A stretch of 63,994 bases of DNA, counting the filler, from Basidiobolus ranarum (lineage: Eukaryota), in NCBI GenBank assembly GCA_040143965.1. It is 4 parts of 4 records of this genome, joined end to end, with 100 filler letters (N's around TTAATTAATTAA, not from the genome) between each part and the next. Parts side by side here need not be neighbours in the genome. Positions count along the whole stretch, not along the records: positions 17,068 to 34,028 come from JASJQH010007197.1; 3 more parts are not named here. One strand, given 5' to 3'. A model generated the notes under the pieces. It was not told where the DNA came from, made no database searches, and worked only from the letters and a program-made list of their open reading frames with translations. Positions 2,399-34,028 of the stretch are shown here, in pieces (position 1 is the first letter of the stretch; each line of letters starts with the position of its first letter). A program made the position numbers and the translations under genes.

Positions 2399-4216
2399 TT
2401 AAATCAAGTGGTTACTCATAAAATCCATCTTACCTGAAAGTGTAAATTTTCTTTTCTTCAACGGTGTGGCCAAACTTCGATTAGGTGTTTTAAGAGTAGC
2501 AGAGGGACTTGGATGACTTTTATACTCAAGGTCTTCTTTATCAGAGGTATCTGCATCTACATTAGAATCTGGGGATATGGCGTGGCTGCTTTTGGACTTT
2601 GCTTTGGATTTCAATTTGGGCAATGGCGTAGTGGGTAAAGAGGAGCCAAATGCAACAGGCGAACTAGGTCGTCCTACTTTGGCTGATTTGATATCATCCG
2701 AGCTGACTGCAACATCCTGCAATATCTTTCCATGCTTCCATTTGACTCCACAAGCATTACACAAAGTGCCAGCTCCAGCTGGGCCACGTCTCCACATTGG
2801 TGTGCTTTTACAACTACAATAAGCACACTTTTTACCATTTCCATTGGTTGAGTTATAAGAGTTGGAATTTTTTCGTGAAACAACAGCAGTAGGCTTGGGT
2901 TTTTTGACTATAATAGATTGGTTAAAATGAAACGTTAAGTTCTATCCTGTATTGTGTAACCATTCTTAAACCATACTATCTTTTTACCTTCCGAGGACCC
3001 AAGGGATTTGGATTTTTTGGAATTACGTCGGGATTCTGACTGAATAGATCTGTAAGTCGCTTGCCTTTATGATTCATTGGTATCTGATTGTTACTCACGT
3101 TAGAATCCGATGCCCGTCGCTCGATGGATTTGGATGGAGTTTTAATGATTGAAAAATCTTTGGCCTCGGCAACGGTGACAGTGGTGGGAGCTATTGTTTT
3201 CTATAAAAAGAACCACCCAAGGATAGAGTTAGAATTCAATTGACAAAAAGGAATTGTTGGCTCCTATCTACCTTCACCAAAGCTTCGGGTAATTCACAGG
3301 GTAAGGAATACTTAACATATAAACGATTCGGAAGATATTTAACCTATTTTAGAATTTACATAAAACGTTTAGTTTGAGTATTAGCGAGGAATATGGATAG
3401 TAAGAGAACAAGTGTTTACCTTGTCGGTCATATATCTATACACAAAAGATACATCTTTGGTGACTTGCTTTATCGATAGCCAAAGCTCTTTAGACACTCT
3501 TGACATATGCATCATCATTGATGGCAACTCATCCATAGATGAAGGGGTCCTTTGTTCACGGATATTTGAAGAAAAAGTCGCGATAATCTGAATTATAAAC
3601 TTGTCAAAAAAAATTCTTTGTCATTAATAATTAAAAGTCTATCTATTCACCTCAAAAGGTTCGCTTATGTTCGTTGCTTCAACAATAGCTTCTTCGGGGA
3701 ATAACCAAGATTCGGACGGATCTTCCATAAATTCAAATATAAGTTCACCTGGTGTAAGAGTTTCAGGAACATCGGACAATGTATTGATTGATAGTTCACT
3801 TATATCCAAAGATTTTTCGGTCAAGTGGACCATTTCTTCAGAAAAGTGCTCTAAAACTGGATGTAATACACGATAAAATTTGGTGCCTGGAAACGTGTGA
3901 GGACCAATGAACAAAGTGCAAGTGCCTATGTATAGATACTGAACACCTGACTCTAAACCACCCCCATATTTACGGAACAACGAAGTATAAGCTTTACGGG
4001 TGTGAATCAAACACGAAAGTAACGCCTTACTAAGAGATGTGAAGATTTGATTAATTGTTAAACGAGGTGATTAATCAAGTAATACTCTCTCTAGAATAAA
4101 CGAAGAATGTATCCTACATACGTGTCAGTTTTCAGATCTTCATCTGTTAACGAACGTTTTGAACCCTCTTTGAGTAAAGATGCAGAGAGAATTTTCTTTT
4201 CTGTATCCGATTCCAT
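2399..4216 (-). CDS. Multi-exon protein: Swc3-like N-terminal region plus C-terminal GATA zinc finger
   Basis: ATG at 4216, several GT-AG introns. Last exon encodes CAYCSCKSTPMWRRGPAGAGTLCNACGVKWK (C-x2-C-x18-C-x2-C). Upstream exons carry CTLFIGPHTF, LIFEFMEDPSESWLFPEEAIVE and VYRYM...RLYVKYSL, resembling Swc3. GATA call is firm; Swc3 call is moderate. Confidence 0.8.
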
Positions 4217-13157: not shown

Positions 13158-16100
13158 ATGACGAACTCATTACCAAATTTATTGGAACTAGACGACCGAC
13201 AACTAGTTGAGAAGTTCCGTAAGTTATTCACTTTTGCTTCGGATAGAAAGAACACAGTTCCTTCTTTCATAAAACAGTCCTTTCTGACCTTTGCCTTTTG
13301 TATTGGTGTTCCATAGGGACAATCACTTACCCAATACTTGAAGCTTCCAAACATTCCCAAGAACACTTAGTCTCACATTCTGTAAATTTTTATTGCTGTT
13401 GTGGTACTGTGGGATGTGCAAAATACCTGGAGGGGGATCAGAAGATTCAAGATAGAGACTCTCAGCTCACTCTTTTAGCAGGTATTGCTTATACAATCGA
13501 ATCATGTATATATACAATTCTTATTTTATCAACAATATAGAACTCGGCAACGCGATATTACTGAAACATGAAGCACACATTCAAAACTCAGTTTTCGCTA
13601 TAAAAACCGCTCAGCAACAGGTTCCCTACATTTAGTCGTATATTTCCATGCATCACTCAACTAATGACTAAACTCTCTTATTCTAGTGCGAAGAGAAGGA
13701 TATTGAAATCAGAGAAATCCTTTTCATGGCACAGCAACTGAAAAGTGATATGGAAGCAATCGAAGAATCTCGAGATAACTTATATGTATCTACTTTAAAA
13801 ATGGAAAAGGTACTTGAATAATAGTGCAATTATCTCCCCTCTTTGGTCTAAATCTCACCAACGTTTTCACTATGATATAGACACTATTAGCCGTATCAGA
13901 AGATTTGGAGGAGTCGAATTTCCGTATACGTGAACTCGGTTTGGAATTAGACGAACAGATTCAAGTCAATGAAAAACTACGTTCTGAAACAGTTAGAGCG
14001 CGTCGATCCACTGCCAAGGTGGATGAGTGGAAAGAAAAAGTAAACACCATTCCACGTGAATCCTCGGTATCACGATTTGATTATTTACCTTTTGACACTG
14101 ATAGGCAATTAATCTACAACAAGAATTGGACAAGTCACGTGAATCCGAGACAGCTTGTCTTACTAGAATGCGTACTTTAAAAGAATCATATAGTAATTAG
14201 CATTTATATAAGTCTTGGTGACGACTTTCTTTAACTGTGTGTATTTACGTAGGCGAGCTGGAGGAATTGTACGAACATCTTCTTATCAAACACCAAGAGT
14301 TGACTTATGAGCGGGAGAATTATGAAGCACTCTCATGGTTGCGTGACTCTAACGAGAAGCTCCGTGAACAAATTTCTTATGTAAGATTTCCATTATCCTT
14401 CATCGCATTCCACATTTCATTACTGATCCTTTGGCCATTAAAGCTGAAATTTAGTATGCTAGATCGTTCGTATGATGAAGGCGAAGAAAACGATGGCATA
14501 ATTTCCATTCTGAAGGAACTAACTGAAGAAAATGTTAGACTAAAGTCAGAGATCGCTGAATATTGTGAGCTTTTAACAGAAACACGCAATGAAACTTCAA
14601 CACTAAGAGCCAAATTGGAAGATCTGAACTTTGGTCACTTATCTACAGATCCTTTGGATAGCGTGTATGCTAATCTGGATGAAAATTGCCATGATTTAAA
14701 TGTTTCTTTCTACCACTCGAATACGGAACGCCCCGAGCACAACGAACTTGAACTTCATTGTGTTTCTGCGCCTTTAACTACACCTTGTTGGAGTGAGCTT
14801 CAAAACAGATCCGTAAGACCATCAACGGCACCTACCTCCCCTGAAGGAACCTTCGTTGTAAGGAACACAATGTTTGGAGAGCTAGAGAAGTATGTTCGTA
14901 AGAAAAGACGGGAAAGAAGAAGATACAGAAGCTCATACTCTGGAAGAAATCGGGACTCTGAATCCATTAGCAATGAATCTTTTACAGATACATCAGATAC
15001 CCAAAGTGTTTACTCTAGCGAAAACTTGAGCGAGGTACTATCTTGATCTTATATATTAACATTTGTATTTTTTATAACCTAACTAGCATTTGCTCAATCA
15101 TCCTCTTTATAGTCTTTAACATCTAATAATACTTCAAATAAGGGACAGTTATCTCCAGACATGCCCCCAAGTGAGGTCGAGGGGATCGATATATCGTTGG
15201 AAGAATCCAATGAGAAATTCAGTGAACAATCAGGTAATGATCATAAGATAAAGACACCCGAACACATACTAACAAGAATCTCTCTAACACCTGGATGTAT
15301 TATGTAAAATCTAGATCATATCGACTCTGAGACATTTGTTAGCAGTGTAGTCAAAGATGCCTCTGAATCCCATCCTGATGAAACAGCTTGCGATGCAAAC
15401 ACCAAAGGTATATATATTTCTGATGATATGAAGACCATCACTCAAATCATTAACAACCATAATATTCACCAATCAAGTTGATACTTTGACTGATGATAAT
15501 ATGAATTGTGAGCATCAGCTTAGTGATAAACCCTGCAACTTGAATGAGGAACTTCCATCAACGCAGCAGAAATCTGGCCAAGAACTTTCTCCTAAAGAAT
15601 TAAATTCAACCGAAATAGAGGAAATGACTACCAAGATTTCGGAGCCCACAATAAGAATTCAGGAAGGTTTCTTCACCCCACAGCCTAAAGCTGCCAAAAT
15701 ACATTCCGAATTTGGAACACCACTTCTAGGAGGGAACAAGGATTTCTGGCTTGAAACAAGGACAAAGGATGACCGTTCTAACATCTTGACTACTTCCACG
15801 CAAAAAGGTGTGAAAGAATTGAAAAATGCTAGAATTGAATTCAAAGGAAAGCACTATATTCGTCATCGAGTTCATTCTGATGCTAGCACTCAAAGACCAC
15901 TCAATCGATTACCTGGGACTATCGACAAAAATGAAACATCAAAAGTACACTTTCTCCGTCAACAGAGAAGTGTAAATGCTGATTTAGGATTTGCAAAAAA
16001 ACTGGAATGGCTATCGGTAGTCCCCAACACTGAGTGGACCAGTCCAAAAGGACCATATGCTAAGAGGTCGCCAATATCCCCGCTGTCATTGAAATTTGCA

Positions 16101-16967
16101 AGTGTCCAAACTATGAATCTTGATAGCCAAGAAGATGTTTTCAAAACCTCCAATAGTAATAGAGAAGGTATGAACACACTAATCCAGCCATACCAATGTA
16201 TATTTGCTTACCATTCTATCAATCATGTAGCCTATATCAAGAAGTCGCACGCTTTACCCAAGTGTCAGCTGTCCACCCCTAAGGACGCATTGAGTCATGT
16301 ATACCAGATATACAAATACTCATCAACCATGTTTGATCGTATTCGTTCTACTGAAATGACTCATTTAAACCGATCAACGCGTAAAGCTTTTGACGTAAAT
16401 GGACTATCGAAAACTAGTAATGTCATGTTAAACAATATTGTACAAGAAATATCCAACATGAACAAGCATCTCGAATCGACTGCACCAAACGAGCAACCTG
16501 TAGATAATTCAAGGCTTAGCAATGAACAAGCAGGAAATATGGGGCTAAACCTATTAACAGAGCTACTACAAGACATCTTGAAGGATATGGCCACATTACG
16601 TATGACCTCCAATGACTATACTGTTGCTTATTACCACTTACTTGATCAGAAGCAAAAGGAGGCTAGCAAAGAAGCAGGATTTTCTCCTAATCCTCCAGCA
16701 TCACACTCTTCTAAACCTCGGAACACGCCTATCTACCGAACTAAACTCAATCCTGAGCCGCTTTTAGCTACTCATGTAACTCCGGTATCTGGTACATTAA
16801 TATCTCCTACTTCACAAACTCGGGGCAACTCAAACGTGTGTACCTCACAACTCTCTTCATTCATCAAGAACAACTCAACCAACACAGCAACTCTTGAGTC
16901 GGAGGTCTGGTACAATCGATATGGAATCCATAGAGAGAATAGATATCAACACTCTGCCTCAAACTGG
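13158..16967 (+). CDS. Large multi-exon coiled-coil protein with N-terminal CCCG..C and CC1-box-like motif; truncated by contig end
   Basis: Consistent GT-AG introns join the exons. YCCCGTVGC...DSQLTLLAELGNAILLKHE is followed by long E/L/K heptad-rich segments, then a low-complexity tail running into the N spacer. Confidence 0.75.
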
Positions 16968-17067
16968 NNNNNNNNNNNNNNNNNNNNNNNNNNNNNNNNN
17001 NNNNNNNNNNNTTAATTAATTAANNNNNNNNNNNNNNNNNNNNNNNNNNNNNNNNNNNNNNNNNNNN
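16968..17067. other. Artificial contig spacer (44 N + TTAATTAATTAA + 44 N)
   Basis: Exactly 100 nt; the core has stops in all six frames; identical to the other two spacers. Confidence 0.97.
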
Positions 17068-17176
17068 CTAAGTAAATTCCTTATGAGAATAATTGATAAT
17101 ATCTTAGTGAATTATAAGATAACTAAGTACTAAGCTATATATGACTATATAGGTGTTTAGGCAATGCTAATTTCAA
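17068..17176. repeat. Dispersed repeat end (copy A) abutting the truncated Fanzor; possible LTR or MITE terminus
   Basis: Aligns with 26767-26875, including TACTAAGCTATATATGACTATAT(A/G)GGTGTTTAGGCAATGCTAATT. Both copies end at ...CAA at the same boundary. Confidence 0.8.
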
Positions 17177-18604
17177 CACAAGATACTTTTCTCTTTTGTA
17201 CTGTCTAATCTTTTGTACTACCTGACACTTTTCCAATTCACTGCAGTGGCAAGTAGGGGACAGACTCTAGTTTTAAACTCGTCAAGGAGGTATAACTGGA
17301 AGTGTTCTTTGGTTAGCATTTTTCTCATTCCGATGCCTCTACTGGGGTCCTGATACTTTACATTTCCAGCCAACCAGTTACCACTCGAATATTCTGACTT
17401 TAAGTTCTCTCTGAGCTTCATGAAATTTCTGCATTTTGTTTCGATTGCATTTTGGTTATTGGTATATTGGTAAACCATTTTGTTTTCAGCGGTACTTTCT
17501 ACGTGCATACAGCACAGCAAATTGCGACATCCAGGATCAATTAGCACACATTTGCCAACACCGGCCAACAACTCTTCTCTTGCTAACTTCTCCACATACT
17601 GAAACTCCTCCTCTTCTGAAGCAATAGACTTTGACTTTGCGCCACCACCACCCTTCTTCTTGGTATTGTGGTTTTGCTTAAACACCGAGACCATATGTGT
17701 ACATCACACCTCAAAACTTCGTTGACTTGCTTTGATGTGAGGTCAATATTGGTTCCTCATACTACTTCTTTATCCAAGTGGCTGGTGATAGAGTTCTTTA
17801 AAATTTGAATACTTAAAATATACATACTGATTGTCATGTAGGATGGTATGAAACCTTTTCTCGGAAATGGAAAGCAGTTAAATGACTTGTTTCGGAGAGC
17901 TTCGCATATGCTTGACAGTCTAGCATACGCCTTTATATGCTTGAGAGGGTTGCTTTTGCCGTCGTAATAGATCGAGTCTTTTGCAAATCGATAAACTGTC
18001 GAATACAGGCCAAAAAGATTATAGATCATATTCAAATTATTTGAAGATAGAAATTCTTTAGGTATATCTTCAATATTTCTTGACAAAATAGCCAGCCTGA
18101 CCTTCTTTACATGCTCTTTTATTGTCTATATAGCTGCTGTAATCTCTTTCCCGCCTCCCTCGTTCTTCAAGAGTAAGTTGAGAAACTTCTAACTTTATTT
18201 CCAAATTGAAGGTTGACCCCGTTCAGATAAGCAGTGACAATTTTTGCCACTTCATAAGAAGCTACCTGATGAACACACTTCAAGTTGACTGGTTCGTAAA
18301 AACAGCACTGAAAGTACTTAGACTGATATTCGAGTATTAGACCTTTGTAGGCTCCTGATACTATTGAAGCTTTCTGTTTGTCTAGCTTGTAGTTATAGAG
18401 GAGTGAAATAAACTTTAAAAAAATCAACATTAATGAAATCCTCCAAATGAAACTCAAGATTATCTTTTAGTTCAAGATGTACTTCAAAAAGGAAAACAAA
18501 TGTGACACAGGGGTATGAATATTAGTTACAAGTGACATGGGTGGCGGAACATATATACCAGCGATTGAGATCTTGGCTGCTATAATCTTTAGAGGTGGTT
18601 CCAT
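17177..18604 (-). pseudogene. Fanzor (eukaryotic TnpB-like RNA-guided RuvC nuclease, Fanzor1-type) pseudogene; transposon remnant
   Basis: Frameshifted segments: MEPPLKIIAAKISIAGI..., QVASYEVAKIVTAYLNGVNLQFGNKVR, SIYYDGKSNPLKH, FNCFP..KGFIPSYMTI, VSVFKQN, GKCVLIDPG (RuvC-I Asp), GNW.AGNVKYQDP.RGIGMRKML, LLDEFKT (rearranged RuvC-II Glu), then partial Zn-finger PTCHC and QYKREKY. Internal deletion; RuvC-III absent. Confidence 0.85.
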
Positions 18605-18711
18605 AAAGAGAAGAAGGGAAAAGGAGAATCGACATCTTTTTTAGTTTACGGATAGAAATATTTGTTAAGCATATACTCTCGAAAAACAATGCTTAGATAG
18701 CTAAGATTTGG

Positions 18712-19048
18712 AGTACAAGTGAGACTCTCTAGTTCCATTTCTTCTAACATGCTCTCAGGTTGTGAGTAAAAATATGGATGCGGTTATAGAGCTACGATTT
18801 TCATATATAGCCAAGTTGATGGTAATGAGGTTTGCATGTAATATAGCATCTGAGATGAAGTACAAGATGTAATCAATATTTTAAGATCCTTCTCTCACCT
18901 ATAGTCTTACTCATGCAGTGGAATATACTCAATACACAGAATATAATTTTGGATGCATCCTAAAGCGTTCATACTTCTTCCCAGTTGGTGTAACAAGAGA
19001 TGATGATTTGAAAGAATATTCCATGATAACCATTATACATAGAATTTA
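18712..19048. repeat. Unclassified ~335-bp dispersed repeat, copy 1 (just upstream of Fanzor)
   Basis: Aligns in direct orientation with 24174-24506; shared blocks CTTCTCTCACCTATAGTCTTACTCATGCAGTGGAATATACTCAAT and CTTCTTCCCAGTTGGTGTAACAAGAGATGATGATT. Confidence 0.88.
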
Positions 19049-19308
19049 CATTATAATACAACTTCGACTTCAGTATATTATGAGGTGGAGAAATATTTAA
19101 GCATTTGTTACAAGATGTACCGACTGTTCGAACGGAAAAATTTAATTCTACCTAACCAGTGGTTTAACATCTCAATTAACGAACGATTACATCGCTATTT
19201 CTCACAATTAAACATCAATTATTATTCAAACATGAAGTTTATTATATTAAATATTATGCTAATAGCAAAAATTAAAGATCATAACCAACACACTAAATGA
19301 AAATCCTA

Positions 19309-20776
19309 TTAATGGTATAATTCAGAATCACCTAAGCAGTCAGCAACGGTGGTGATCTTGAAGCCAGACTTGATGACGGTATCCAAGATACCAGCAGCAG
19401 CCTTGATGGTGCTGGGTTGGATGTCATGTTGGAGGGAGATGAAACGATCATTCTTCAAGTTGGCCTTAGCGAGGACATCCTTGTAAACCTTGAGGGTCTT
19501 TTGTGAGTTCTTGTGTTCCCAGTCAAGGGTATCGACGTTCCAGTTGATGACCTTGTAGCCCATATCCTTCATGATGGTAAGAGCCTTGGCGTTGTATTCA
19601 CCATATGGAGGACGCATGTATTGAGGACGCTTGCCAATAACCTTGAAGATGGCATCGGCGGTCTTGGTCATTTCGGAGCGGATCTTGGATTCAGAAGTCT
19701 TGGCAAGACTGATGTGAGTGTAGGTGTGGGAGGCGATGTGATGGCCTTCATCATAGGCACGCTTGAGGAATTTGCGACCTTGATCAGACTCGAGCACTAT
19801 AAACAAAATCAGAAAAGGTTGTTGTTAGCAATCAGCTGGATAGAGTGTCTATAGAGTGGAACACAGAGCAAATTAGCTCAAGTATGATTTACTTACTTTC
19901 ACCAACAACGAAGAAAGTAACCTTGACATTTCTGGCTTTCAAATCGTTAAGAAGTTGACCGGTGTATTCACTTGGTCCATCATCGAAAGTGACGGCGAAA
20001 GTGCCAGCTTTGTTGCAAGTCTCGATGATCTTACCAGTGGGGACCTTACCTCCTGGTTGAACAGGGGGGTTGGGAGGTTGAGGAGGATTGCTGCCACAGT
20101 ACTCTTCGGTATTACCGCAGTATCCATATTCAGAACAGCAGTATCCGGAGGGGCACTGAACCAAAACCTTGCCCTTCAAACCACAAGTCCAATCACTTGA
20201 GATGACGGTCTTGGTGGGATTAGGACTGGTAGAGACAGTGGTACTAGGCTTGCCAGTAGGCTTAACAGAGGTGGTGGGCTGAGGGTTTTTGCAGTACTCC
20301 TCGGTGTTTCCACAATATCCGTATTCTGAGCAGCAGTATCCAGAGGGGCACTGAACCAAAATCTTACCCTTTAAACCGCAAGTCCAATCACTTGAAATGA
20401 TGGTCTTGGTGGGCTTAGGGCCAGTAGAGACAGTGGTACTAGGCTTGCTAGTAGGCTTGACAGAGGTGGTGGGCTTGGGCTTCTTGCATTGGAACAAACA
20501 GTCGGTCACGCAATGCTCCTTGGAAGTTCCACACCTAATCAAATATCAACAGAAAATCTCTTGGTTAGACCCTCTCGCCGGATATCTCCTAGCTGGTATC
20601 AATTAATACCAAATGTACACTTACCATCCGAAGGAAGAGCAGCACTCGCCACTAGGGCAGGTGACTTTCTCACCATTGATCATCCCGCATCTATCATCCT
20701 TGGAAACACGAGCTTGGATAGCTGTGACCTGAAGAAAGACGGCAATGGAAATAAGCACAGCTTTGGAGAAATACAT
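19309..20776 (-). CDS. Secreted chitin deacetylase: 3 x CBM18 (hevein-like) plus CE4 NodB domain, copy 1, 3 exons
   Basis: Signal peptide MYFSKAVLISIAVFLQVTAIQA; CPSGECCSSFGWCG and two CPSGYCCSEYGYCG modules with P/T/K linkers; CE4 motifs TFDDGP, SHTYTH, RPPYG, DTLDW, LQHD. Confidence 0.93.
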
Positions 20777-21603
20777 TGTTAGAGAAGAGGATTAATGGTT
20801 ACTATAGGAATTACTTTTCCAGATTATATACACAAGGAATCCTATGAAAATCACCAGCAGTTCACTTTTCGATGTCTCAATCTCCCAGCAATGTTACACC
20901 ACATTTGTACTCCTACTTAGCTACCTTCAATTAGAGGCGAAACTCAATGGCCACGAAGATTCGGTGCTACTCTTTGGATATATCTGGAGATGTTTGGTAA
21001 ATCAACCAAAACATACAAAATATTCACATTATGACGTAGTGAACTATTATTATCCACGATAGATTCAAGTAGTCAGTTTATTTAGTTTCACTCCGAATCA
21101 CCAAATATTTTGCAATCTACTAGAGCGTCTTTGATTGGTTATTGTTCTTCTACCACGAGGTTTATACTCTTCTTAGAAAATCGTTCGATTGATACGTTAA
21201 TTCCATTTATAGGACTCTTTCAACTGGCATCTTAGGTCTTAATTAGCAGCCGTGTAACCAAGCCTTCCATGTTATAGCATATCTCATTTAACCTTTAATC
21301 ACTTATTTTGCATTTACCAACGATTTACTCATACTTCATAGTCTTATTCTTAATATTTAAGCACTTGGCCTTCATTCTAGAATTGACACGTTCAAACCAT
21401 TCTTTCAACCGTGAAGGTAAATGCATCACTAAATCAGCTTCGAAGGTAATTTTGTCATCGCATCTTGCTACATTCAAAATTGGCTGCGAATAGCGAAAAC
21501 AAAAACAACATAATATCATTACACTTTATTAGATTAATAAAATTAATTATGCGTCCAAATGAGAAAGTTGATATGCAGCTGGTTAGAAAAGAGAGATAAT
21601 AAC

Positions 21604-23071
21604 TTAGTGATATAATTCAGAGTCACCCAAGCAGTCAGCAACGGTGGTGATCTTGAAGCCAGACTTGATGACGGTATCCAAGATACCAGCAGCAGCCTTG
21701 ATGGTGCTGGGTTGGATGTCATGTTGGAGGGAGATGAAACGATCATTCTTCAAGTTGGCCTTAGCGAGGACATCCTTGTAAACCTTGAGGGTCTTTTGTG
21801 AGTTCTTGTGTTCCCAGTCAAGGGTATCGACGTTCCAGTTGATGACCTTGTAGCCCATATCCTTCATGATGGTAAGAGCCTTGGCGTTGTATTCACCATA
21901 TGGAGGACGCATGTATTGAGGACGCTTGCCAATAACCTTGAAAATGGCATCGGCGGTCTTGGTCATTTCGGAGCGGATCTTGGATTCAGAAGTCTTGGCA
22001 AGACTGATGTGAGTGTAGGTGTGGGAGGCGATGTGATGGCCTTCATCATAGGCACGCTTGAGGAATTTACGACCTTGATCAGACTCGAGCACTATAAACA
22101 AAATCAAAAAAGGTTGTTGTTAGCAATCAGCTGGATAGAGTGTCTATAGAGTGGAACACAGAGCAAATTAGCTCAAGTATGATTTACTTACTTTCACCAA
22201 CAACGAAGAAAGTAACCTTGACATTTCTGGCCTTCAAATCGTCAAGAAGTTGACCGGTGTATTCACTTGGTCCATCATCGAAAGTGACGGCGAAAGTGCC
22301 AGCTTTGTTGCAAGTCTCGATGATCTTACCAGTGGGGACCTTACCTCCTGGTTGAACAGGGGGGTTGGTAGGTTGAGGAGGATTGCTGCCACAGTACTCT
22401 TCGGTATTACCGCAGTATCCATATTCAGAACAGCAGTATCCGGAGGGGCACTGAACCAAAACCTTGACCTTCAAACCACAAGTCCAATCACTTGAGATGA
22501 CGGTCTTGGTGGGATTAGGACTGGTAGAGACAGTGGTACTAGGCTTGCCAGTAGGCTTAACAGAGGTGGTGGGCTGAGGGTTTTTGCAGTACTCCTCGGT
22601 GTTTCCACAATATCCGTATTCTGAGCAGCAGTATCCAGAGGGGCACTGAACCAAAATCTTACCCTTTAAACCGCAAGTCCAATCACTTGAAATGATGGTC
22701 TTGGTGGGCTTAGGGCCAGTAGAGACAGTGGTACTAGGCTTGCTAGTAGGCTTGACAGAGGTGGTGGGCTTGGGCTTCTTGCATTGGAACAAACAGTCGG
22801 TCACGCAATGCTCCTTGGAAGTTCCACACCTAATCAAATATCAACAGAAAATCTCTTGGTTAGACCCTCTCGCCGGATATCTCCTAGCTGGTATCAATTA
22901 ATACCAAATGTACACTTACCATCCGAAGGAAGAGCAGCACTCGCCACTAGGGCAGGTGACTTTCTCACCATTGATCATCCCGCATCTATCATCCTTGGAA
23001 ACACGAGCTTGGATAGCTGTGACCTGAAGAAAGACGGCAATGGAAATAAGCACAGCTTTGGAGAAATACAT
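21604..23071 (-). CDS. Secreted chitin deacetylase: 3 x CBM18 plus CE4 domain, copy 2, 3 exons
   Basis: Near-identical to copy 1 at an offset of 2295 bp, introns included. Confidence 0.93.
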
Positions 23072-24173
23072 TATTCAAAGATAGGATTGTTGAATTGTAA
23101 GAGACTTCCAACGCTCACTTATATATTCCTCTATTCCAAAAGAATGGTGAGTAGTGTGGTAACACCACTTGATGACTCTCATATTCTATAAGAAACTCCA
23201 ATTCTGTTTGTTCATTTCCGTTATATTGGTCAAACATTTAAGATATGATTGAATGGTTAACTTTTTTGGTAGATATTTTGGTCATGTCATGCATTGCTGG
23301 TCCATCTGTTTATAGTAGCAAAAGATCCGTTTCCTTTTTCACAGATGCATTGGATATTGCAGTTGATCCATGCGATTTTCGCCCACCGGAATTAATATTT
23401 TTGGTTATCATGCGAAATGAGCATATCTCTTGGTTCTAGATTGTAGTAATATTCTAAGGCAGCTGGTATTGAGCATATGACTTCATAAAGTCAGATATTT
23501 TTGATCCGCTCCTCATCAGGTTTCAGGAATTGGATAGTAGTCTAGTGCAAATCAAAGAGCAACAGGGTAGCCTATCGGAATCGAACGACAGCATATGTCT
23601 AGGTTATTATAGAACATTCGTATCTCAATAGATACTGAAAGTTGGCGTCAGTAACGTTAGTCTAATTTAGAAAACCAGTTTACGTGTTACTCAGGGAGTG
23701 AATGTTTCCGATCTGACGGGCATACTGAGGGTACTCAAGTAATTACACTGACACAAGCATACGCCATTGAGTGAATTAAATCTTTCATATTCACCTACAG
23801 TGTTTCAAAAATACTGGACACAACAGCTTGGCCATTGTATTAAATAACTGGATTCTTCCAAAGTTGATTGACTGTCTTTTTTCACTGAACCTGAAATTTA
23901 TTTGTACTACAACCCAAGAATATTCGAAACCAGGAGCTTGAGGTCGAAAACGGTTACATGTAGTGTGCTGATACCATGGCGTTTCTAGGGCCTCAGTAAC
24001 TTCTCATTATTGGAAGATTTCCAGGAACCTTGATATATCTAATGGCTCACTAGACGCCACCAACTCAGTGCTAATTGTTCGTCATCCGGTAACAAAACCG
24101 AAATGCAGTCTCGTTCGATTTAGGAAATTCATATTGTCTAGTATAGGATGAAGCAGCTTCTCGAAAGGGTTGT

Positions 24174-24506
24174 AGTATACGTGAAACCACTGGTTCCATT
24201 TCTTCCAACATGCCCTTCGGTTGTGTGTAAGTATATATTTACGCTTATAGAGCTACGCTTTTTGTATGTAGCCAAGTTGACGGTAACGAGGTTTGCATGT
24301 AGTATAACATCCGAGATGTACAATGTGTAATCAATATTTTAAGATGCTTCTCTCACCTATAGTCTTACTCATGCAGTGGAATATACTCAATCCGCAGAAT
24401 AATCTTTTCGATTCATCCCAAAGCGTTTATGCTTCTTCCCAGTTGGTGTAACAAGAGATGATGATTAGGAAGAATATTCCATAATAAATATCATACATAG
24501 GATTAG
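24174..24506. repeat. Unclassified ~335-bp dispersed repeat, copy 2
   Basis: Direct-orientation homolog of 18712-19048. Confidence 0.88.
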
Positions 24507-26380
24507 CATATCCGCGAAGAGATAGTGAAGATGTGCGAGTAAGCCAATCAAAAGTTGCGTGAGATGAGGCTTCGCTTTGTAGATAAATCAAGTATGTATA
24601 CATGTGGATGTTGGCTGGGATTCGGGTATTGCTAATGGTAACTTCATCATTCATTGCAATCGCCATTGGACTTGGCATGCTTAGAGTTCGAACTTTTGTC
24701 GATAAATGAGCGGAAGTCTGGGGTTGAGTGCACACAGCATAAATATATTTATCTATGCACACGTGGAGTTCAAATGAGAGTCTAGATATACTACTCATTT
24801 GAGAGAGAGTGGAACGTTGATCTACTCCAAGTCTTAATATAGCTGTTAGAGTTGGTGCTAAATATCGATTTGACTGGTAGATACAATGACGTCTGCCAAT
24901 AATGTAGTTTAGGAATAGTATTTTATCCTTTTAACCGAGAATTTAGCTACCGGGTTGATTTCCATGGCGTCAAATTACGACAATAGCGAGTAAAGCATTC
25001 CCATGGTTTAATGTGGCTTTGATCCGTAAGACTAAAAATGAAACTAGTGATCACGAACCCTTTTCATATGGAAAGAGAGGCTTAGGGAGTCTTCACAGCC
25101 AGAAAATCCATGGTTACCCACGGCCAGACTTAGCCAAACCGAATAAAATACAACGGGGCTGTTGGAGACATGACTCTTCAAACTGAAGAAATCCCCATGA
25201 CCAGAATTCCTACAAGAGTCGGAGAATCATCTGGGAATTTTGTCAGGCCGATCCAAGGTATTGTAATCTTGGTCCATGGTGGCTTGGAACCAATCCTATT
25301 GGTTTCTCTTGCGGCTATATTACTGCCTCGATTAGTAATTTCTTTACTATCAGTGCCGTGAGATTTCGGCCAAGATCAACTTGGTTACACGTTGTATTGC
25401 TACACATTCGTTCGAAGCTAGCATTTAGATAGGCTATCAGCACTAGGTGTATTTATAGCACTAGAGAACTTATTGAATATGCATAAAGATCCTACATTCA
25501 TATAGTGGCCACGCTCATGCAGACTCAAGTGGAAATATGGCAAGTGCGCCGGATGTCTTAAAGTGCTAAATATAACCGCTACTTAGTGCATAGCTTTGGT
25601 GCGTTTGATGACTAATAACTTTCCCGCCTTGCTCCTCTCATTTTGTTTGATTGGTTATTCTGCTATTTTTTATCAACCCCACATAGCGACTTCCTACGAT
25701 GAGATTAGGCAAGAATAATCTACTCAGTGTAGGGATATTTACCTTGGTTACTTCAGTTGATATTCAATTGGAGAAGCCAACTTTTACTACTTGGTGATTA
25801 TTCAAGGCAGGTCCAATACTCCTCTAGAATACACTAAGCAGTGTCAATGATATACCTGAGATATGACTAAAATATACCCATGGCATCACTGAATTCATGT
25901 ACGGGCATATAATATAGCAAAGCGAGAACCCTCCAGATAGCAAGTGGTTATTTTTCCTATTGTTAATAAATACAATTAGATTCATCATCATGGGCAAATG
26001 AATGTTAGGCATCATTGACGATTTTAATATGCTGTGTTTCCTGTTAATTAAGTGACAAACCACTTTAATACGTGTCATCTTTTGTTGATCTCGTTTGTAA
26101 ATTGGAGTATCTTTACATTTGTATGCTATGCTGCAGCCCTACGTATTTGTTACTTTGCTTATACACTGGCACTCATAACTGATTAACTTTGTCGCATGAA
26201 GTTTTAAAATGGCAATATCGCAGCATTCACTTCATGATTCAATTTGATGTTTGTCACAATGCTTGATCGGAGCCTAAGTAACAGCCATTGGTATTGAGAA
26301 GGTGATTCCGCTACTCTTGGTGTTGTGGCCTACATCTTTATTCATAAGCTTACATGTTGAAAGCCATTGTGAAGAAATAT

Positions 26381-26455
26381 TGGTTTGGCCAGAAATTGAA
26401 CCTGGGATTCTGCCAACTCTAACAAGGTGCTCCACTCACTAAAATATCAGTTCAC
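26381..26455 (-). pseudogene. Degenerate tRNA-like sequence (tRNA pseudogene or SINE head)
   Basis: Minus strand reads ...TAGTGAGTGGAGCACC...CCAGGTTCAATTTCTGGCCAAACCA: T-arm/B-box-like hairpin, ~75 nt, weak acceptor and D arms. Confidence 0.4.
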
Positions 26456-26766
26456 ATGACTTTAGTATCCCATTAAACTGACTCCTTACCTACAATCATA
26501 TATGCCATCTCTTAATACAGTCTATCAAATGCTCATAATTTTGATTAAGTAAATTTTATCAAGGTGTTTTGGGAGCCTATTGCAAGTGGTTTGGAGATTT
26601 AGAGAAATTGGTGGCTTGCACTTATTGATTTATTGAGTATTCAGTTGACATTTATAGTTTTGTCAAGATGTAAACAGACTAACACGAAAAATGTGTTAAG
26701 GAAGGTCCCAGGAACATGTGTGCAAAGTTTGGGGCTTCTTTGAAAGATCTATATATCTGAGAACTT

Positions 26767-26875
26767 CTAAGTAAAATCCCATTGAGAATAATGAGTGATA
26801 CCTTAGTTCAATACAGGATAACTAGATACTAAGCTATATATGACTATATGGGTGTTTAGGCAATGCTAATTCCAA
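26767..26875. repeat. Dispersed repeat end (copy B); element may extend further left
   Basis: Aligns with 17068-17176 in the same orientation. Confidence 0.8.
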
Positions 26876-27099
26876 AAATATTCTCTATGTTGCCAACTGC
26901 TTGATACTGTTGTGAGCACTTGCGATGAATTCGAAGTATTTAAGATAATCAGAAGCCATATGTGATTCGCGCTTGTTGTTTTGTTGAATTAAAAGAAGTA
27001 TTTATACTAATATTGGAAGTAAAGAAGAATATTCAAGGACTTGGAGTAAAAAAGCGGGGACTTTTGGAAGAGTTTGAGGAATCTCTGTCTTGTTCACCA

Positions 27100-27550
27100 T
27101 TTCAGATATTTGTCATATATATCCAAGATAAATGTGACCATTTTGATGTAGAACTATTATGCAAATGAATATCATATATACCTATACCTCAGCATATACG
27201 CGATATATACAAAGAAGAAATCTTGGGCCACAATTTATTCTTTGATGACAACTTTGGAAGTAGTGTCTTAGCAAAGGTTTATGTTATGTCTGTAAAACAG
27301 CTAAGGGGGGTTGTTTCCATTTATTCTATCGGAATAGATTAATGCATCAAAGCTGGATACATTCACAGAGATAGCTTGCCAACTTAAATATAATGTGATG
27401 GGATGTAAAACGTTTGGTCAATGGTATAGAATCAACTTTTAATGTTAATATATGCCATAGTAGTGAAACCTACATAAAGAACCGTGGTATTCTCAGAAAT
27501 ACAGTATAAACTCTTTTGACTTATGGCTGTAGAGTCACATAGTATTTGTG
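27100..27550 (+). pseudogene. Possible decayed protein-kinase-like gene (Crinkler/FunK-type)
   Basis: GCT GGA TAC ATT CAC AGA GAT (AGYIHRD, catalytic-loop-like) at 27352-27372, and a DLW-like subdomain IX ~150 bp downstream; interrupted by stops and frameshifts. Confidence 0.35.
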
Positions 27551-28172
27551 GTTTGGCATTACACAAAATAAATGTATAGTTACTTATTTGCTTTGCATTC
27601 TTGTACCATAATTCTTTTGAATAAATAATTCAAAAGAAAAAGAATATTATTAGTTTTAGGTATACCTCTAGACTGTTGATCATTTGGCCATTATAATTCC
27701 TACACAACTACTAGTAGTCCTCAATATTTATAACACAAATCCTGTATGATATTCAACTGCTGAAGTCTATTGAATATATGTACAATAGATGCATCATTCT
27801 TGCAGGTATCTTATTAAACTGCTTACAATAGAATCCAATCTTCTTGAGCCTGTATGTATTCTGTACTCATTCAAGATGAACTGGTTGCTTATGCAACTAG
27901 TCCGCTGCTGAACAGATCTACAGAAGTTAGTATGTTTATTTTTCCAGAAATCCACACGCAAAGTGAATCTACATCAGACTGATTTAAAGCTAGACTAATC
28001 CATAACACTAGAACCCAGGTTAAGTTCAAGGAAACTGGGATTGAATAAAGTGCCTACTATTACGGATCATAAATAGGTAATACGAAAGTAATGTTTGGAA
28101 TCAAAAAAAGGCCACATTGTTACCATTTACACAAACTGGTCTTAATTCCCCGAAACTGTGATGTGGAATAGT

Positions 28173-29320
28173 TCAGTCATTTGTTGCTTCATTAATTTTC
28201 TCGTTCCTTTTTCTATTCTCCAATCGCTCGCTCTCTAGCAAGTCATCCACATCACATATCCTCCATCTCCAGTCGGGTATGTTATGATCTGGTAGCCATG
28301 GTTTGGCCATAGCATCGGATGGTTCAAAATATGGAGTTTCAAAGCTGATAACTAGCGGGCGTCTCGAAAGGTCGGTCTTGAACGGCTCCCCATCCCTTTT
28401 GATTTGATAGAGCACATCGGCATCAAAAACCACATTCACTTTAGCGTACAATCCTTGATGTAGATCCTGAACGAAGCTACGTTCAAATGAGCTTAAAGTT
28501 TGTTTCGAGATAGCTATTTTCATGGTCATCCATTGATAAATACGATACTTCTCCTTTAATCCAAACGCTTTTTTGGGCCCACGAGTGATCCAAATATCCC
28601 CTAACTTTATGTTATGAATTTTCGGTATTTCGATATTTAATGTATACCCTTTTCGTTCTAATTCCGATAATTCCTTGTCATAACGATCGTATAAATCGGC
28701 GGATAACGTATCATTCAAATACCCTTTGTCCCATTTGGATAAGCTTGCGCAAAGTGGGCCTACTGTCATTTTAGCTTGAGTCAAGAAAATGTTAGCTTTG
28801 ACCGTAGAGCGCTGTAACACGGTTGAAATTGTTGGGTGCAAAATGAAGTTAACCTACCACCAGCCAAGAACTCCCTTGGAAAGTACTCCCTAGTAGAATA
28901 AGCTTGTATTTCTCCAATAGCTATCCATTGACTTACTGCTCGACATATGCTGGTTGGAACAATACTTTTGACAAAAGATAATGGTTGGTCCATTTGATAA
29001 GGATATTGTTTTATCCTACTAGCGTCAGAGCCGCAGAGCCATGCTGGCAATTAGAGGAGGAAATCAACTTAATTGTCACTAAAAGGTCTTGATTCAGAGC
29101 AACCAAAGAACTTACGAAAATCTATTTGTGGAAAATGCTCCGGTGGTATATTCAAGCCTTCAGGCGGAGTGCCTTTTGGTGCAGGCGGAGGTGAGGGAAT
29201 GGGGTCTTGAGAATGGCCAGGGAGTGGAGATGAGTATGCTCTCGGCCCTAAAATTCTTGGTATTTTTATCACTTGGGTCTTTAAGGGAAACTTGGAGAAT
29301 GGAGTTCGATGTAGAAACAT
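28173..29320 (-). CDS. Probable mitochondrial Tim44-like/MAIP1-like protein, 3 exons
   Basis: Basic presequence-like N-terminus (MFLHRTPFSKFPLK...RAYSS). Spliced PQIDF|PWLCG and YFPREFLAG|AKMTVGPLCASLSKWDKGYL resemble the Tim44-fold EFL.GAK pattern. Ends with WRICDVD. Confidence 0.6.
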
Positions 29321-30858
29321 TGTATGCGGTGTTTGATAACAAGCGAGTTCGAGTCGGCTAGATGGATTTATATTTCGTAGTCTCATAGACACAATCTAAT
29401 TGGGTCAGCAATTTCTATCTACGTCATGCTTGCTTTGTGGAGGAATCGAATACTACGATCTCTTAGTATTCAGCTGTTAACCGCTTCCTACCTTTATTAG
29501 CTACAGAACTCGAATATTCTTACAAATATTATTCCATGCTCCGAGAAACCCTCTTTGCCCGCTCATTCAAAGTCAAGTATGGGTGTTATAGTTTTGATAC
29601 AGTGTGAAGTAATTTGATAAACTTTACGCAATAAAGAAGCAGTTATGTTTCCCGATCCACGATGAAAGCTCAAGCACAAATATGGACATTAGCGGGAATA
29701 CTATGTTATAGATAGTAATTACCTCACTTGTGTAACGTGACAGTTCTCGATTCTCCATCGTGATAGCACCATTTTTGAATCAGTGATTTAGGGTTCCACT
29801 CCGAGGGAATGTATGCATCTTGACAAAAGAACTTCCTTGATTCTAGAGTGACAGAAATGAGCCTGAGTTATTTGCTAAATAGTGCCCGCCCTTTTCTTAC
29901 TTTGTTCTTATCGGTAAACTTCAGGTTTTACGAAAACAACATTCAACCTTAAATGATGAATTCAAAACCAAGCAGGTTTTTCTTACTTGGATGAACAGTG
30001 GAGATTGAGTTATTCCAAAAAGTAATTAGTTTTCTTTAAATATGGAATATTTAACTTAAAGCGAATCGTTTTGGAGCAAGCAAGCTTCTAGAAGCTTAGT
30101 ATAAGCCTGACCTAAACCTTATTCCTGCAACTTTTCCATTGAAACCTTCGAGCTCCGAATTCACAATATCAAGTCAAGTAGAAGAATGAACAGATACTGA
30201 AGTCAATCTTACAGACTCCACATGGTTATGAAATCTAAACTTGAGTTAAACCGTCTATCAAGAAAGGTACGACCATAGTTATCCATGAAATTATAGTTTC
30301 ACGAATCAAAAGGCCTAGACCAAGAGATAGAGGCTTGAAAGATGAATGAAAAATTAGAAATTAAGCTTTCTAAACACAAAAAGTTCCTATCTCACTAATA
30401 TGTAGGTTTCTCTCTCAGTTTCAAAAGACATCTTTAAATCCATTATTCATATAGTAGCCATTGTCTTATAGCTTAAGTGAACTTCAATGGATAAGATGGA
30501 ATTGAAGAATTTCACCTTCGTATGACAGATTAATCTGCAATCTTGAAAAGGGGGATTAATCCATTTAAAATTCTAGATCAAAATATGGATGGATAATGTT
30601 AAGCTCATGCCTCGACCTGCCGACTGTTACTATTAAAGTATTTAAAGCCAATACTACTTCAACTCCTACCACTCGGATTTGCTAAGTTAATTAGTCCTGA
30701 AAGGAGAGATTCAATTCCAAAGAATATTTATTTGGGTTTATGCAACAAGCGACTTTGGAGGAGAAAGAATTACAAAAGGTTTGGGGTTAGGTGGCATGAT
30801 TTTCAGTCTTACACGAAATCTCTTTTTTTACAAATTTTACAAAAACTAGTAATACATT

Positions 30859-31755
30859 TCAAACAATAGGGATTTTTAGCAGGTGGGTGGCTGTGACTGC
30901 GGTTAAGAAAAGTAGCAGCTTGGCCCTTACTATAACTATAATACATATTACAAGCGAACATAACATGAGAGCAATTATAAATGGCTCTTCCGTGGCTATT
31001 AGTGTCATGAAGATTCGATTTGCTGCTTGGAATCCGACCATCGAGAGTGTAAATAAAAGTACAAAAAGTGAGGGAGACTCGGAAGTAAACAGACGATTCA
31101 CCGTTTTGGTTAAAGTATTGAATATATACAACGTAACGAAGATAATTCCTCGGACGAACATCATCAGACTCGCAATGGCAATGGTTATAAACAGTATCAT
31201 CAAGAACTCTTTGGTTCCGGTGATCGCGGCAAATACTCCGGTAATTCCGAATAGTAGAAGGAACTCTTTGACTCCGGTGACCGCCACCGCGATGGACGAT
31301 ACGGTGAAAATGATGATGGTGTCTTGAACTCCCAGAAAGCTCGCTATTGTGCTTGCTATCAGGAAAATTCCAAGGAATGTAGGGGTACTGGTCATAGTGG
31401 CGGTTATCACTGAGAAACTAAATACGATGAAAAACTCCTTAGTCGTACTGATGATCGCAGTGGTCGCAGCTAGAACGACGATTACTACAAGGTCGCGTAC
31501 ATTTGGTACTACTGAGGTTACAGCAGCTAGCACGAAAAGCAGCAAGAATTCGCGCGGACTGGCAACAAGAGCAGCCACTAGAGTCATGCCAATAATGACG
31601 AGAAACTCTTCGGTTACTGCAGTCATCAGCTTGTCTCGAGTGCTTCGTACGAAGGGGATTATTGAGGTCCCCAACGTAGTTCTAAAATTCACACTTTCAC
31701 CGAACAGTGTGATGGTTTTTAACGTGGTGATGTTTGCTTGAGGTTGGGAAATCAT
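30859..31755 (-). CDS. Intronless orphan hydrophobic protein with eight tandem 19-aa repeats
   Basis: Uninterrupted ORF (298 aa from ATG 31755) with exact 19-residue periodicity (x3-[KRQ]-[ED]-F then hydrophobic run); TATA-like ACTATATATAG ~140 bp upstream. Confidence 0.72.
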   Translation of the reverse strand: MISQPQANITTLKTITLFGESVNFRTTLGTSIIPFVRSTRDKLMTAVTEEFLVIIGMTLVAALVASPREFLLLFVLAAVTSVVPNVRDLVVIVVLAATTAIISTTKEFFIVFSFSVITATMTSTPTFLGIFLIASTIASFLGVQDTIIIFTVSSIAVAVTGVKEFLLLFGITGVFAAITGTKEFLMILFITIAIASLMMFVRGIIFVTLYIFNTLTKTVNRLFTSESPSLFVLLFTLSMVGFQAANRIFMTLIATEEPFIIALMLCSLVICIIVIVRAKLLLFLTAVTATHLLKIPIV

Positions 31756-33449
31756 AGATCGGTTTGTTTGAGATCTTGGATGATATATGTATTGGGTTAT
31801 GCAGATGCAAGGCAAGACTTGCGTTATGCTCTGTGATGCCTTTGAAGTGATTGTCGCAAAGTATTTCGATCAACCTCCTAGGGGACTTCCAACACTATAT
31901 ATAGACTTCACAAGATATGACATCAGTACTATTGATTGTCCAAGATTCGATAGAAATTGTGAGCAAATAATGACTTCCGACTTGGGATCCAGATCACAAT
32001 CAGCCATGGACAAATTATAGGCCAAATTGTAAGTAGGAGTAAGTGTCATCACCAAAAATGATGCCATTTAGGATCGGTATCCACGAATCTGATGGACCCT
32101 GGCTTATTCAACAAACAAAGGCAATTGGGGGCATTCCCAAGTAACTTCAACTCCAAATCTATGACGTAGAATTCAGTTCATCAGTACAATATGAGTATTT
32201 GGCGATCCTAAGAATGATGATGTAGAGCGGGTTATGCCAGGCGAACATGTAGTGCTCGTCCGATTTTGCCCACTTGTAATTAGCAGAAAAGAAAATCTCT
32301 CATCACTCTATTGGCCCTCCATCTTTTGACCTCAAAACCGAATGGTGACGAAAACTCTCATCACCAGCCACTACGCAGATCTCAGGAGTCTGGTAAAGTT
32401 AGCTATATTGGATTTCACCATTGTTGCAAACAGACCCACGCGGACCAGAAACGCCTATTGCTCCTGGATTCTTGGTGTATTCGTGATGTCTTGCTGAAAC
32501 TTATCAATTTGGCTCACCAATGATGCGATTATCAGGTGACTAGATTCTTATTGTAGGCATCTTCAGTGCACAGCATTATTTGGCAACATGTAGTTAGGAA
32601 CGTTATCAGTATTATAAATTATGGTCAGTACAATTGAGGGTTTCAAAGAACCTTGCCAGCCAGAACCCAACCGAATTTAACAGGGTTTTAAACATAGATA
32701 ATCAGTTCACGTCAATCAACTAACAATGAGTTAACGTTTGGCATCTATTCCAATCATATTTGTTGCAATTACTTGGATAGGGGTATCAAACGCTTAAGAA
32801 TGTCAACGATCTACGTATGCGAAGGAAACAGAACTGAGATACAGTTTTCCATGAACATTCTAAACATAGACCGTTGTTTTCAGTGCTTTGGTTGCAGAAT
32901 TGCCTTTTTCCATTCTTTAGGTTACTACAAAATGCCCGAATTGTCTGTTGCTAAGAAAACGAGGCTCAGGGTAACAGAAGCTTAGAGATTGAAAACCTCA
33001 TCGGAGGTTAGTCAAGGAAGGAGGAGTCACAGTTCTTTGCATGATAAGTATGGCTTAGCATGGTGCTATGACGTTATTGGCTCAATGCATCAAGCCCACA
33101 ATCGGCCCTCGGAAATAGAAAATACGTCTTATTTTACAAAATATCTGATTGTTCTAATTCCTCTCATTTTGGATCAAAACACTGTATATTGGCATCGATC
33201 AATCTACACATCGTGAAACCTCTCCACTCTCTCTGCACTCCTACATTACATCAATCGTAGCCGGTATGACAAAGGTTGTTGACTTGAGTGATTGGAGGCG
33301 GTATTCAGTTCAACATTTGATTGGGTCTTGTGAATAAACAAAATTTTAATCACCGTATACTCGACATACATTTGTTATCTGGATGCTCAACCACTGGGTT
33401 AACCTATTCGAGCAAATTATTTGGCCTAGGCGGGAATTTAATAGCTCCC

Positions 33450-33786
33450 ATGAACGAAGAAATCAAAGCACTTGAAAGCGAAATGAAGAAGAACAGGGGG
33501 AGCGAGAAAGAGATTACGGCAGCTATAAAGACAATATTGGAACATATAAAGAAGGTCAGGCTGGCTATTTCGTTAAGAGATATTGAAGATATACCTAAAG
33601 AATTTCGGTCCTTGAACGATTTGGATAAGATCCATAATCTTTTTGGCTTGCATTCAACCGATTAGCAATTTACAAAAGACACGATCTATTACAACTGCAA
33701 AAGCAACCCTCTCAAGTATGTAAAGGCGTATGCCAGACTGTTTAGCATGTGCAAAACTCTCCAAAACAAACAATTCAACTACTTTC
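33450..33786 (+). pseudogene. Second Fanzor fragment (N-terminal helical region), inverted relative to 17177-18604
   Basis: Clear nucleotide homology to the reverse complement of ~17871-18168 (AAAGAAGGTCAGGCTGGCTATTT, TATTGAAGATATACCTAAAGAATTTC, GCAAAAGCAACCCTCTCAAG); internal TAG at 33663-33665. Confidence 0.85.
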
Positions 33787-34028
33787 TTTGGGGAGTGGGT
33801 GAAAACGCTGTGGTGATTTTACATGGCCAAATTCAGAATTCCACTTGTAGATAATTGTTGGAAGCTAGTGACTCGTAGAAACTAGGTTCTTAGGGTTAGG
33901 TAGGGGGGATGAAAAGCACCAGGTGGTGTGGACTATATTTAGCTTATATACTAATCTAAGCCGAATGGGAATCCGGGCAGCTATCTTCTATAATATTTTG
34001 ACAGAACGGGATCGTATCCCTACTTAAC

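Follow-up and report, generated by a model that had tools for sequence, protein, structure and literature searches.

What is the broken coding sequence on the minus strand at one end of a Basidiobolus ranarum contig, and how did it come to be there? The DNA analysed here (the window) is a stretch of 63,994 nucleotides from GenBank assembly GCA_040143965.1, and the sequence in question lies in the part derived from JASJQH010007197.1 (17068-34028). A first-pass annotation had read it as a dead member of the Fanzor family. Fanzor1 proteins are eukaryotic TnpB-like RuvC endonucleases guided by an omega RNA (ωRNA) and carried by DNA transposons, and the sequence, hereafter copy 1, appears to be a fossil of one of them. 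We conclude with high confidence that 18604-17183 on the minus strand is a decayed, non-functional Fanzor1 gene. It also seems rather likely that a Rhizopus-type Fanzor1 element crossed from Mucorales (Mucoromycota) to Basidiobolus (Zoopagomycota), where it would have amplified and decayed, possibly on a Crypton-like tyrosine-recombinase transposon.

Read on the minus strand, copy 1 runs from MEPPLK, the usual start of the family (18604-18587), through LIDPG (17544-17530), GNW (17382-17374), LLDEFKT (17289-17269) and PTCHC (17257-17243) to QYKREKY (17203-17183); of the estimated 694 codons, about 474 are left. The first-pass annotation had described a Fanzor-like protein spelled by the minus strand across frameshifts, and each motif that it listed was found at its place, the whole being spread over three reading frames. 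Pieces of copy 1 match experimentally characterised Fanzor1 proteins. A 161-residue piece (17218-17703, minus strand) matched Parasitella parasitica PpFz1 (9cf0_P, E 7.2e-26) and Spizellomyces punctatus SpuFz1 (8gkh_P, E 9.6e-10), the only two Protein Data Bank (PDB) sequences recovered at E ≤ 10, and a 122-residue piece (17757-18125, minus strand) matched PpFz1 (9cf0_P) with an E-value of 2.9e-18. When a profile built from 14 relatives was compared with the PDB, it aligned end to end with PpFz1 (4e-228), SpuFz1 (6e-107) and GtFz1 (9e-28), the only three PDB sequences at E ≤ 0.01. At the DNA level, homology to the metagenome contig L001, which carries the gene of a Rhizopus relative (P0003), covers 18612-17182 of the window with 74-76% identity over 1.5 kb, beginning 8 nt before the ATG and ending inside the open reading frame (ORF); the limits first proposed, 17177-18604, were right to within a few bases. 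A phmmer search with P0003, the closest intact relative of copy 1, returned 2,735 cluster representatives at E ≤ 1e-3, of which 323 reached E ≤ 1e-30, so that the Fanzor1 family is a large and established one. The features of copy 1 are as follows.

17183-18604, minus strand: Fanzor1 pseudogene (very probable), copy 1, from PDB matches, tblastn with Rhizopus proteins, frameshift-aware alignment and DNA homology to L001
18126-18128, minus strand: in-frame stop AAI*TIKE, from alignment to relatives
17757-17759, minus strand: in-frame stop KEVV*G, a Trp codon in relatives, from alignment to them
17530-17544, minus strand: RuvC-I motif LIDPG with its Asp codon (17538-17536) kept, aligned to VVIDPN of SpuFz1
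17383-17397, minus strand: junction (...NLKSE / GNW) of an in-frame deletion of about 270 nt (90 codons) inside RuvC, from protein and DNA alignment
17269-17382, minus strand: GNW...LLDEFKT block, with Gly at the canonical RuvC-II position and the relocated Glu (codon 17280-17278) aligned to SpuFz1 E541
17183-17266, minus strand: remnant of the zinc ribbon (TNB), SLSPTCHC...QYKREKY, from tblastn against SLCPSC...YQREKY of P0003 and sequence reading

Copy 1 retains the hallmarks of the Fanzor1 active site, namely the RuvC-I Asp and an inert Gly with a relocated Glu. In the HMMER alignment to 8gkh_P, the Asp of LIDPG falls on chain residue 777 and the Glu of LLDEFKT on chain residue 935, and a single tag offset of 394 converts these into D383 and E541 of SpuFz1. 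D383, E541 and D606 are given as the catalytic residues of SpuFz1 in the part consulted of Xu et al. (2024, PMC11423790). The D and E motifs had been proposed to map to the RuvC active site, and this is where the alignment puts both of them. The Gly of GNW lies 34 residues ahead of the Glu of LLDEFKT. A change of the canonical RuvC-II Glu to Gly or Pro, compensated by a downstream Glu, had been given as Fanzor background in the first-pass annotation; it is indeed stated in the consulted text of Jiang et al. (2023, PMC10530073), and the excerpt used of Bao and Jurka (2013, PMC3627910) likewise gives G500 and E536 as conserved in Fanzor1.

The reading frame of copy 1 is broken at many points. 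Lesions were read against the Rhizopus proteins P0009 and P0003, using tblastn and frameshift-aware alignment, and against the DNA of L001. At least five frameshifts are present (near 18470, 18415 and 18185, within 17719-17679, and at about 17262, just past DEFKT), and a further stop at 17713 in one alignment path brings the in-frame stops to two or three altogether. About 14 residues have been lost near 18140-18158. A deletion of about 100 residues had been suspected before GNW and is real: residues 321-413 of P0003 and chain residues 940-1112 of PpFz1 are without counterpart, and just some 14 nt of the window pair with L001 3523-3806, the net loss in DNA amounting to 270 nt. Introns were considered as the source of the frame breaks and dismissed: the alignments with relatives run through the stops and frameshifts and show no gaps resembling introns. 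Copy 1 does not contain an uninterrupted ORF of about 600-700 residues. With its frame interrupted by frameshifts, stops and deletions of 14 and 90 codons, copy 1 is therefore a member of Fanzor1 by descent only, and a pseudogene.

The 3' end is lost as well. The zinc-ribbon remnant can be reached only through the frameshift after DEFKT, the first Cys of its CPxC motif has become Ser (SLSPTC compared with SLCPSC), and the second Cys pair has been truncated away, so that a C4 zinc ribbon is not present. All Fanzor homology stops at 17182, beyond which about 96 residues are missing, among them the second Cys pair and the WNRDMAATLNF motif with the Asp of RuvC-III; the intron site near the 3' end and the non-coding 3' region where an ωRNA would lie have gone too. 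The missing C-terminal part was not found elsewhere in the window by tblastn with the C-termini of P0003 and P0008 (best E outside copy 1, 1.5). Copy 1 is bracketed by two repeats.

17068-17176, no strand assigned: repeat A, an unrelated dispersed repeat in the place of the Fanzor 3' end, 83% identical to 26767-26875
18708-19046, no strand assigned: repeat B, about 100 bp upstream of the Fanzor start codon, 85% identical to 24170-24504 of the same contig

Beyond QYKREKY the Fanzor sequence has given way to repeat A, and this repeat in turn is cut short where the contig ends; the break in copy 1 lies about 110 bp from that end. A 3' ωRNA region and a transposon right end are accordingly missing from copy 1, their place being taken by repeat A. 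The absence of RuvC-III and of the ωRNA end, which had been part of the original description, stands on these two observations, the stop of homology at 17182 and the repeat on its 3' side. Neither repeat A nor repeat B is similar to L001. Repeat A was considered as the right end or ωRNA scaffold of the element and is rejected for now: it is unlike the 3' flank in L001, and its second copy does not stand beside a Fanzor. It folded no better than shuffled sequences (z +0.38, +0.97 and +0.44), with no ωRNA-like fold, and a search of the whole window with Rfam at gathering thresholds gave no match. Terminal inverted repeats and target-site duplications (TSDs) are not definable in the window, two Fanzor fragments being too few to delimit the ends, and no counterpart of the recombinase-like ORF upstream of the Fanzor1 gene in L001 was found there.

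Taken together, the PpFz1 and SpuFz1 matches and the lesions confirm the dead Fanzor of the first-pass annotation and identify it more exactly as Fanzor1. Guided, cleavage-competent action can be considered for its intact ancestor, which would have bound an ωRNA encoded at its own 3' end and cut DNA flanked by a transposon-associated motif (TAM) with a D-E-D RuvC site. Cutting that is ωRNA-guided and TAM-dependent is established for SpuFz1 and PpFz1, and is attributed to the ancestor of copy 1 by homology. Judged by its sequence, copy 1 itself cannot act as an RNA-guided nuclease.

A second, diverged copy had also been claimed for this contig. It exists, but as a mere internal fragment that does not include RuvC.

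33435-33785, plus strand: Fanzor1 pseudogene fragment, copy 2, from tblastn and DNA self-comparison

Copy 2 is 351 bp long; its 117 codons correspond to residues 36-152 of P0003, in the REC region, and one stop interrupts them. It is 83% identical in DNA to 17870-18168 of copy 1, relative to which it is inverted, and lies 15.3 kb away, 243 bp from the opposite end of the same 16,961-bp contig. As copy 2 retains the 14 residues that copy 1 has lost, neither copy derives from the present state of the other. Over 99 codons the two copies differ at 50 sites, distributed 20, 14 and 16 over codon positions 1, 2 and 3; this even spread indicates neutral drift since their common ancestor. Transitions number 35 and transversions 12, G/A and C/T substitutions run both ways, and no clear signal of a mutation bias like that of repeat-induced point mutation was seen in this comparison. 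These data point to the two copies being what may remain of one old, decayed burst, a history in which the entry of a Rhizopus-type element into Basidiobolus would have been followed by amplification and then by neutral decay of the copies. The visible remains do not encourage the idea of a living Fanzor family in the B. ranarum genome. At 33142-33186, 250 bp upstream of copy 2, 45 nt resemble L001 4536-4580 in its 3' flank (78% identity, E 1.6e-4 in a small search). This match is AT-rich and short and is regarded as probably due to chance.

Where did this family come from? With the piece 17218-17703 as query, 12 of the 13 matches were Rhizopus proteins and the remaining one an unnamed JGI protein. 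Among the best 120 of the 220 matches of the profile search, the named ones were mainly from Mucorales (Rhizopus, Gilbertella, Helicostylum, Pilaira, Thamnidium, Parasitella, Mucor, Cokeromyces, Halteromyces and Rhizomucor), with Coemansia and Syncephalis in addition. No homologue named as Basidiobolus was present in the 13 matches of the piece or in the best 120 of the 220 profile matches, which is a weak indication of a patchy distribution. A tree was computed with IQ-TREE in quick mode over 678 columns and 46 rows, consisting of the two window copies (with X at the breaks) and 44 relatives. In this tree the two copies form a clade (Shimodaira-Hasegawa-like approximate likelihood ratio test, SH-aLRT, 96) inside a nine-row clade with R. 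arrhizus and R. delemar (99); going outward, R. microsporus comes next (93), followed by Gilbertella and P0009 (99). Coemansia and Syncephalis, which belong to the host's own phylum, Zoopagomycota, lie far from the window copies. The phylogeny is therefore discordant with the host tree, the Basidiobolus copies being nested within a Rhizopus arrhizus/delemar subfamily. The approximately unbiased (AU) test rejected a grouping of the 10 Rhizopus rows that left out the window copies (p 0.040), and likewise one of Rhizopus, Gilbertella and two unnamed rows (p 0.020). Protein identity to P0003 follows the same order: 70% for copy 1 (348 columns), 65% for R. microsporus, 52-59% for Gilbertella, Helicostylum and Pilaira, and 34-39% for Coemansia and Syncephalis. 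A further public contig, L002 (1,114 bp), carries in positions 1-199 a 63-codon fragment of a Fanzor1 REC region; its DNA shares 81% identity with window 18103-17906, more than L001 does over this interval (about 74-76%), and the rest of L002 matches nothing in the window.

Codon comparison with the P0003-type gene on L001 bears on the age of the relationship. Over 347 codon pairs, 293, 293 and 241 are identical at positions 1, 2 and 3. Third-position identity is thus 241/347 against a chance value of 0.255, and the synonymous (dS) and non-synonymous (dN) divergences are 0.68 and 0.16 (dN/dS 0.24). A dS of 0.68 with 69% third-position identity is not expected from a split between phyla. Such far-from-saturated synonymous sites between fungi of different phyla point to a horizontal move of the element, for which the simplest route is from a donor resembling Rhizopus to Basidiobolus. 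By this evidence the Fanzor1 family of Basidiobolus (Zoopagomycota) probably entered by horizontal transposon transfer from Mucorales.

Could copy 1 nevertheless be a gene in use? One possibility is that it is intact and that its lesions are sequencing errors, assembly errors or unrecognised introns. The frameshift near 18415 does fall at a run of T, and relatives carry a 59-nt intron near their 3' end (L001 4038-4096). However, copy 1 has in-frame stops, a 270-nt deletion and a 3' end exchanged for a repeat that is also present elsewhere; the break at 17182 lies 29 nt before the intron site of the relatives, and no ORF continues from it in any frame. We regard an intact gene as highly improbable. 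The longest open piece of copy 1, a 158-residue ORF (17694-17218), has been annotated as a protein (P0190, in NCBI and UniRef), and it could be asked whether this shortened Fanzor derivative has been domesticated for some new role other than that of a nuclease, given that it keeps both the RuvC-I Asp and the Glu. Yet P0190 spans the 90-codon deletion, starts inside the WED/RuvC region and is devoid of RuvC-III and of the zinc ribbon; its cluster has a single member, and the adjoining parts of the same gene are decayed. Domestication is thus scarcely credible to us: P0190 is a pseudogene fragment, not a gene, and this 'hypothetical protein' should be treated accordingly in annotation.

The origin of copy 1 leaves two other explanations to be weighed against transfer. 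Under vertical inheritance, Fanzor1 would have come down from the common ancestor with Mucorales, and slow evolution or lineage sorting would account for its nearness to Rhizopus. The broad Fanzor1 family does occur in other Zoopagomycota (Coemansia, Syncephalis), and Fanzor1 trees are known to mix lineages, as with Syncephalis beside Mucor in the 46-row tree. Against this, the tree places the window copies among the Rhizopus sequences (support 96-99, AU p 0.02-0.04), copy 1 at 70% identity to P0003 exceeds the R. microsporus members (65%) and all other genera compared, and the dS and the third-position identity are at odds with the general expectation for a split at phylum level. Vertical inheritance is therefore, in our judgement, unlikely. 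The remaining explanation is technical, with Mucorales contaminant DNA mis-joined by the assembler to the ends of a Basidiobolus contig, and both Fanzor pieces do lie within 1.6 kb of contig ends. Copy 1, however, has repeat A on one side and repeat B on the other, and their second copies (26767-26875 and 24170-24504) are interior, beside chitin deacetylase genes of Basidiobolus type; since both repeats also occur inside the contig, a chimeric contig is unlikely. Moreover, the copies are just 74-76% identical to L001 in DNA and heavily decayed, the two form a clade of their own, and GC content is unchanged across them. On this evidence we give a chimera very little credence, and horizontal transfer remains the reading that we prefer.

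Several points weigh against that reading or against the identification beneath it. The 44 relatives in the tree were hand-chosen to represent genera from about 300 fetched, and the tree search was a quick one; the groups put to the AU test were defined with the tree already in view, and their p values are no more than moderately small. For host divergence, the sole benchmark is a single chitin deacetylase domain from a multigene family, with 38-42% protein identity to Mucorales. The frameshifts of copy 1, its junctions with repeats A and B and its contiguity with Basidiobolus genes are taken from the assembly alone. Finally, a local copy of Pfam, which does not contain PF26935 (precomputed for the relatives), gave no relevant match with five ORF pieces or with six Rhizopus relatives, so that the Fanzor1 family call rests on the PDB and pairwise evidence.

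The contig in which both copies lie is fungal in its gene content. Three identical, artificial linkers of the form N44-TTAATTAATTAA-N44 (16968-17067, 34029-34128 and 51074-51173) divide the window into parts of falling size, about 17 kb each, of which 17068-34028 has 16,961 bp and the next 16,945 bp. The three linkers make the window a chain of separate draft contigs whose adjacency across the linkers is artificial, and the segment 17068-34028 is one contig.

16968-17067, no strand: artificial linker N44-TTAATTAATTAA-N44, a contig boundary, from sequence reading

This contig encodes chitin deacetylases with chitin-binding domains, and other parts of the window encode a myosin head, a serine carboxypeptidase and C2H2 zinc-finger proteins. 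The chitin deacetylase piece at 19309-19824 is 96% identical to a B. ranarum protein, 82-83% identical to B. meristosporus and 38-42% identical to Mucorales, which marks the host as a Basidiobolus. The gene for the chitin deacetylase with chitin-binding domains is duplicated in tandem (19309-21603 and 21604-23898) as a 2,295-bp unit with 99% identity, and each unit contains an internal repeat of 195 bp (87%) that encodes Cys-rich chitin-binding modules. The third contig carries three C2H2 zinc-finger ORFs of similar size within 5.4 kb (45030-45821, plus strand; 47237-47995, minus strand; 49552-50388, plus strand), which are possibly a local cluster of paralogues. A 512-residue open frame without a Pfam match (15432-16967, plus strand) runs into the end of the first contig.

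In terms of function, copy 1 is one more dead member of a solved family and brings no new TAM, guide or nuclease. Its interest lies in documenting Fanzor1 in Basidiobolus and in the probable cross-phylum transfer, the sole new element of this analysis, which bears on how Fanzors have spread among eukaryotes. Our literature search found no publication naming Basidiobolus together with Fanzor; the supplements of Fanzor surveys, which possibly list Basidiobolus, fell outside that search. Nesting in a Rhizopus subfamily, combined with unsaturated synonymous sites, makes an exchange of transposons between two phyla of fungi with shared habitats open to testing; if true, it would give a concrete example of an RNA-guided nuclease transposon passing from one fungal phylum to another. 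The Basidiobolus genome is large, and should the burst have left younger copies elsewhere in it, intact ones could be among them, with a guide and TAM near those of the Rhizopus subfamily.

How does copy 1 compare with known systems? The bacterial TnpB proteins of IS200/IS605 and IS607 are presented in the consulted parts of two articles (PMC3627910, PMC10530073) as ancestral; they share the core of RuvC and zinc ribbon and are likewise guided by RNA. The search gave no direct match to bacterial TnpB: the PDB profile search returned Fanzor1 only (E ≤ 0.01), and the Pfam family OrfB_Zn_ribbon was unmatched. SpuFz1 (PDB 8gkh) has its D383 and E541 columns matched by the Asp and Glu of copy 1, from which it is more distant than PpFz1; unlike copy 1, it has D606 and a complete zinc ribbon. 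The best solved relative is PpFz1 (PDB 9cf0-9cf3), which shares the order REC-WED-RuvC-TNB. The consulted part of PMC11423790 describes PpFz1 as a Mucorales Fanzor1 with a 75-nt ωRNA and, within RuvC, the FRI domain, an insertion of about 100 residues. Whereas PpFz1 is active as a nuclease, copy 1 is without the counterpart of its chain region 940-1112, and the Parasitella proteins fall in a different clade of the tree from the subfamily of the window copies. There are also four Fanzor1 families of Rhizopus oryzae, among which ROr-4 has MuDR-like ends and 9-bp TSDs, as reported in the consulted part of Bao and Jurka (2013, PMC3627910); they belong to the same protein family and the same putative donor genus as the window copies.

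The closest relatives of copy 1 belong to the Rhizopus arrhizus/delemar Fanzor1 subfamily represented by P0003, a protein of 577 residues named 'Transposase' in UniRef. Its gene on L001 (99.6-100% identity) has a 59-nt GT..AG intron (4038-4096) after ...RHGLLR, and P0003 starts at MKYAHQ because the N-terminal 117 codons of the L001 Fanzor gene are disrupted. Upstream of the Fanzor1 gene, L001 1-903 encodes a 301-residue ORF with a weak match to tyrosine recombinases (Phage_integrase, E 6e-4, below the Pfam cut-off), which hints at a Crypton-like carrier for the L001 Fanzor1. The P0003-type gene and copy 1 share the MEPPLK start, LIDPG, GNW, LLDEFKT and the zinc ribbon in the same order; P0003, however, has an open frame and retains CPSC...CKNQQC and the WNRDMAATLNF of RuvC-III, whereas copy 1 is broken and has lost these C-terminal parts.

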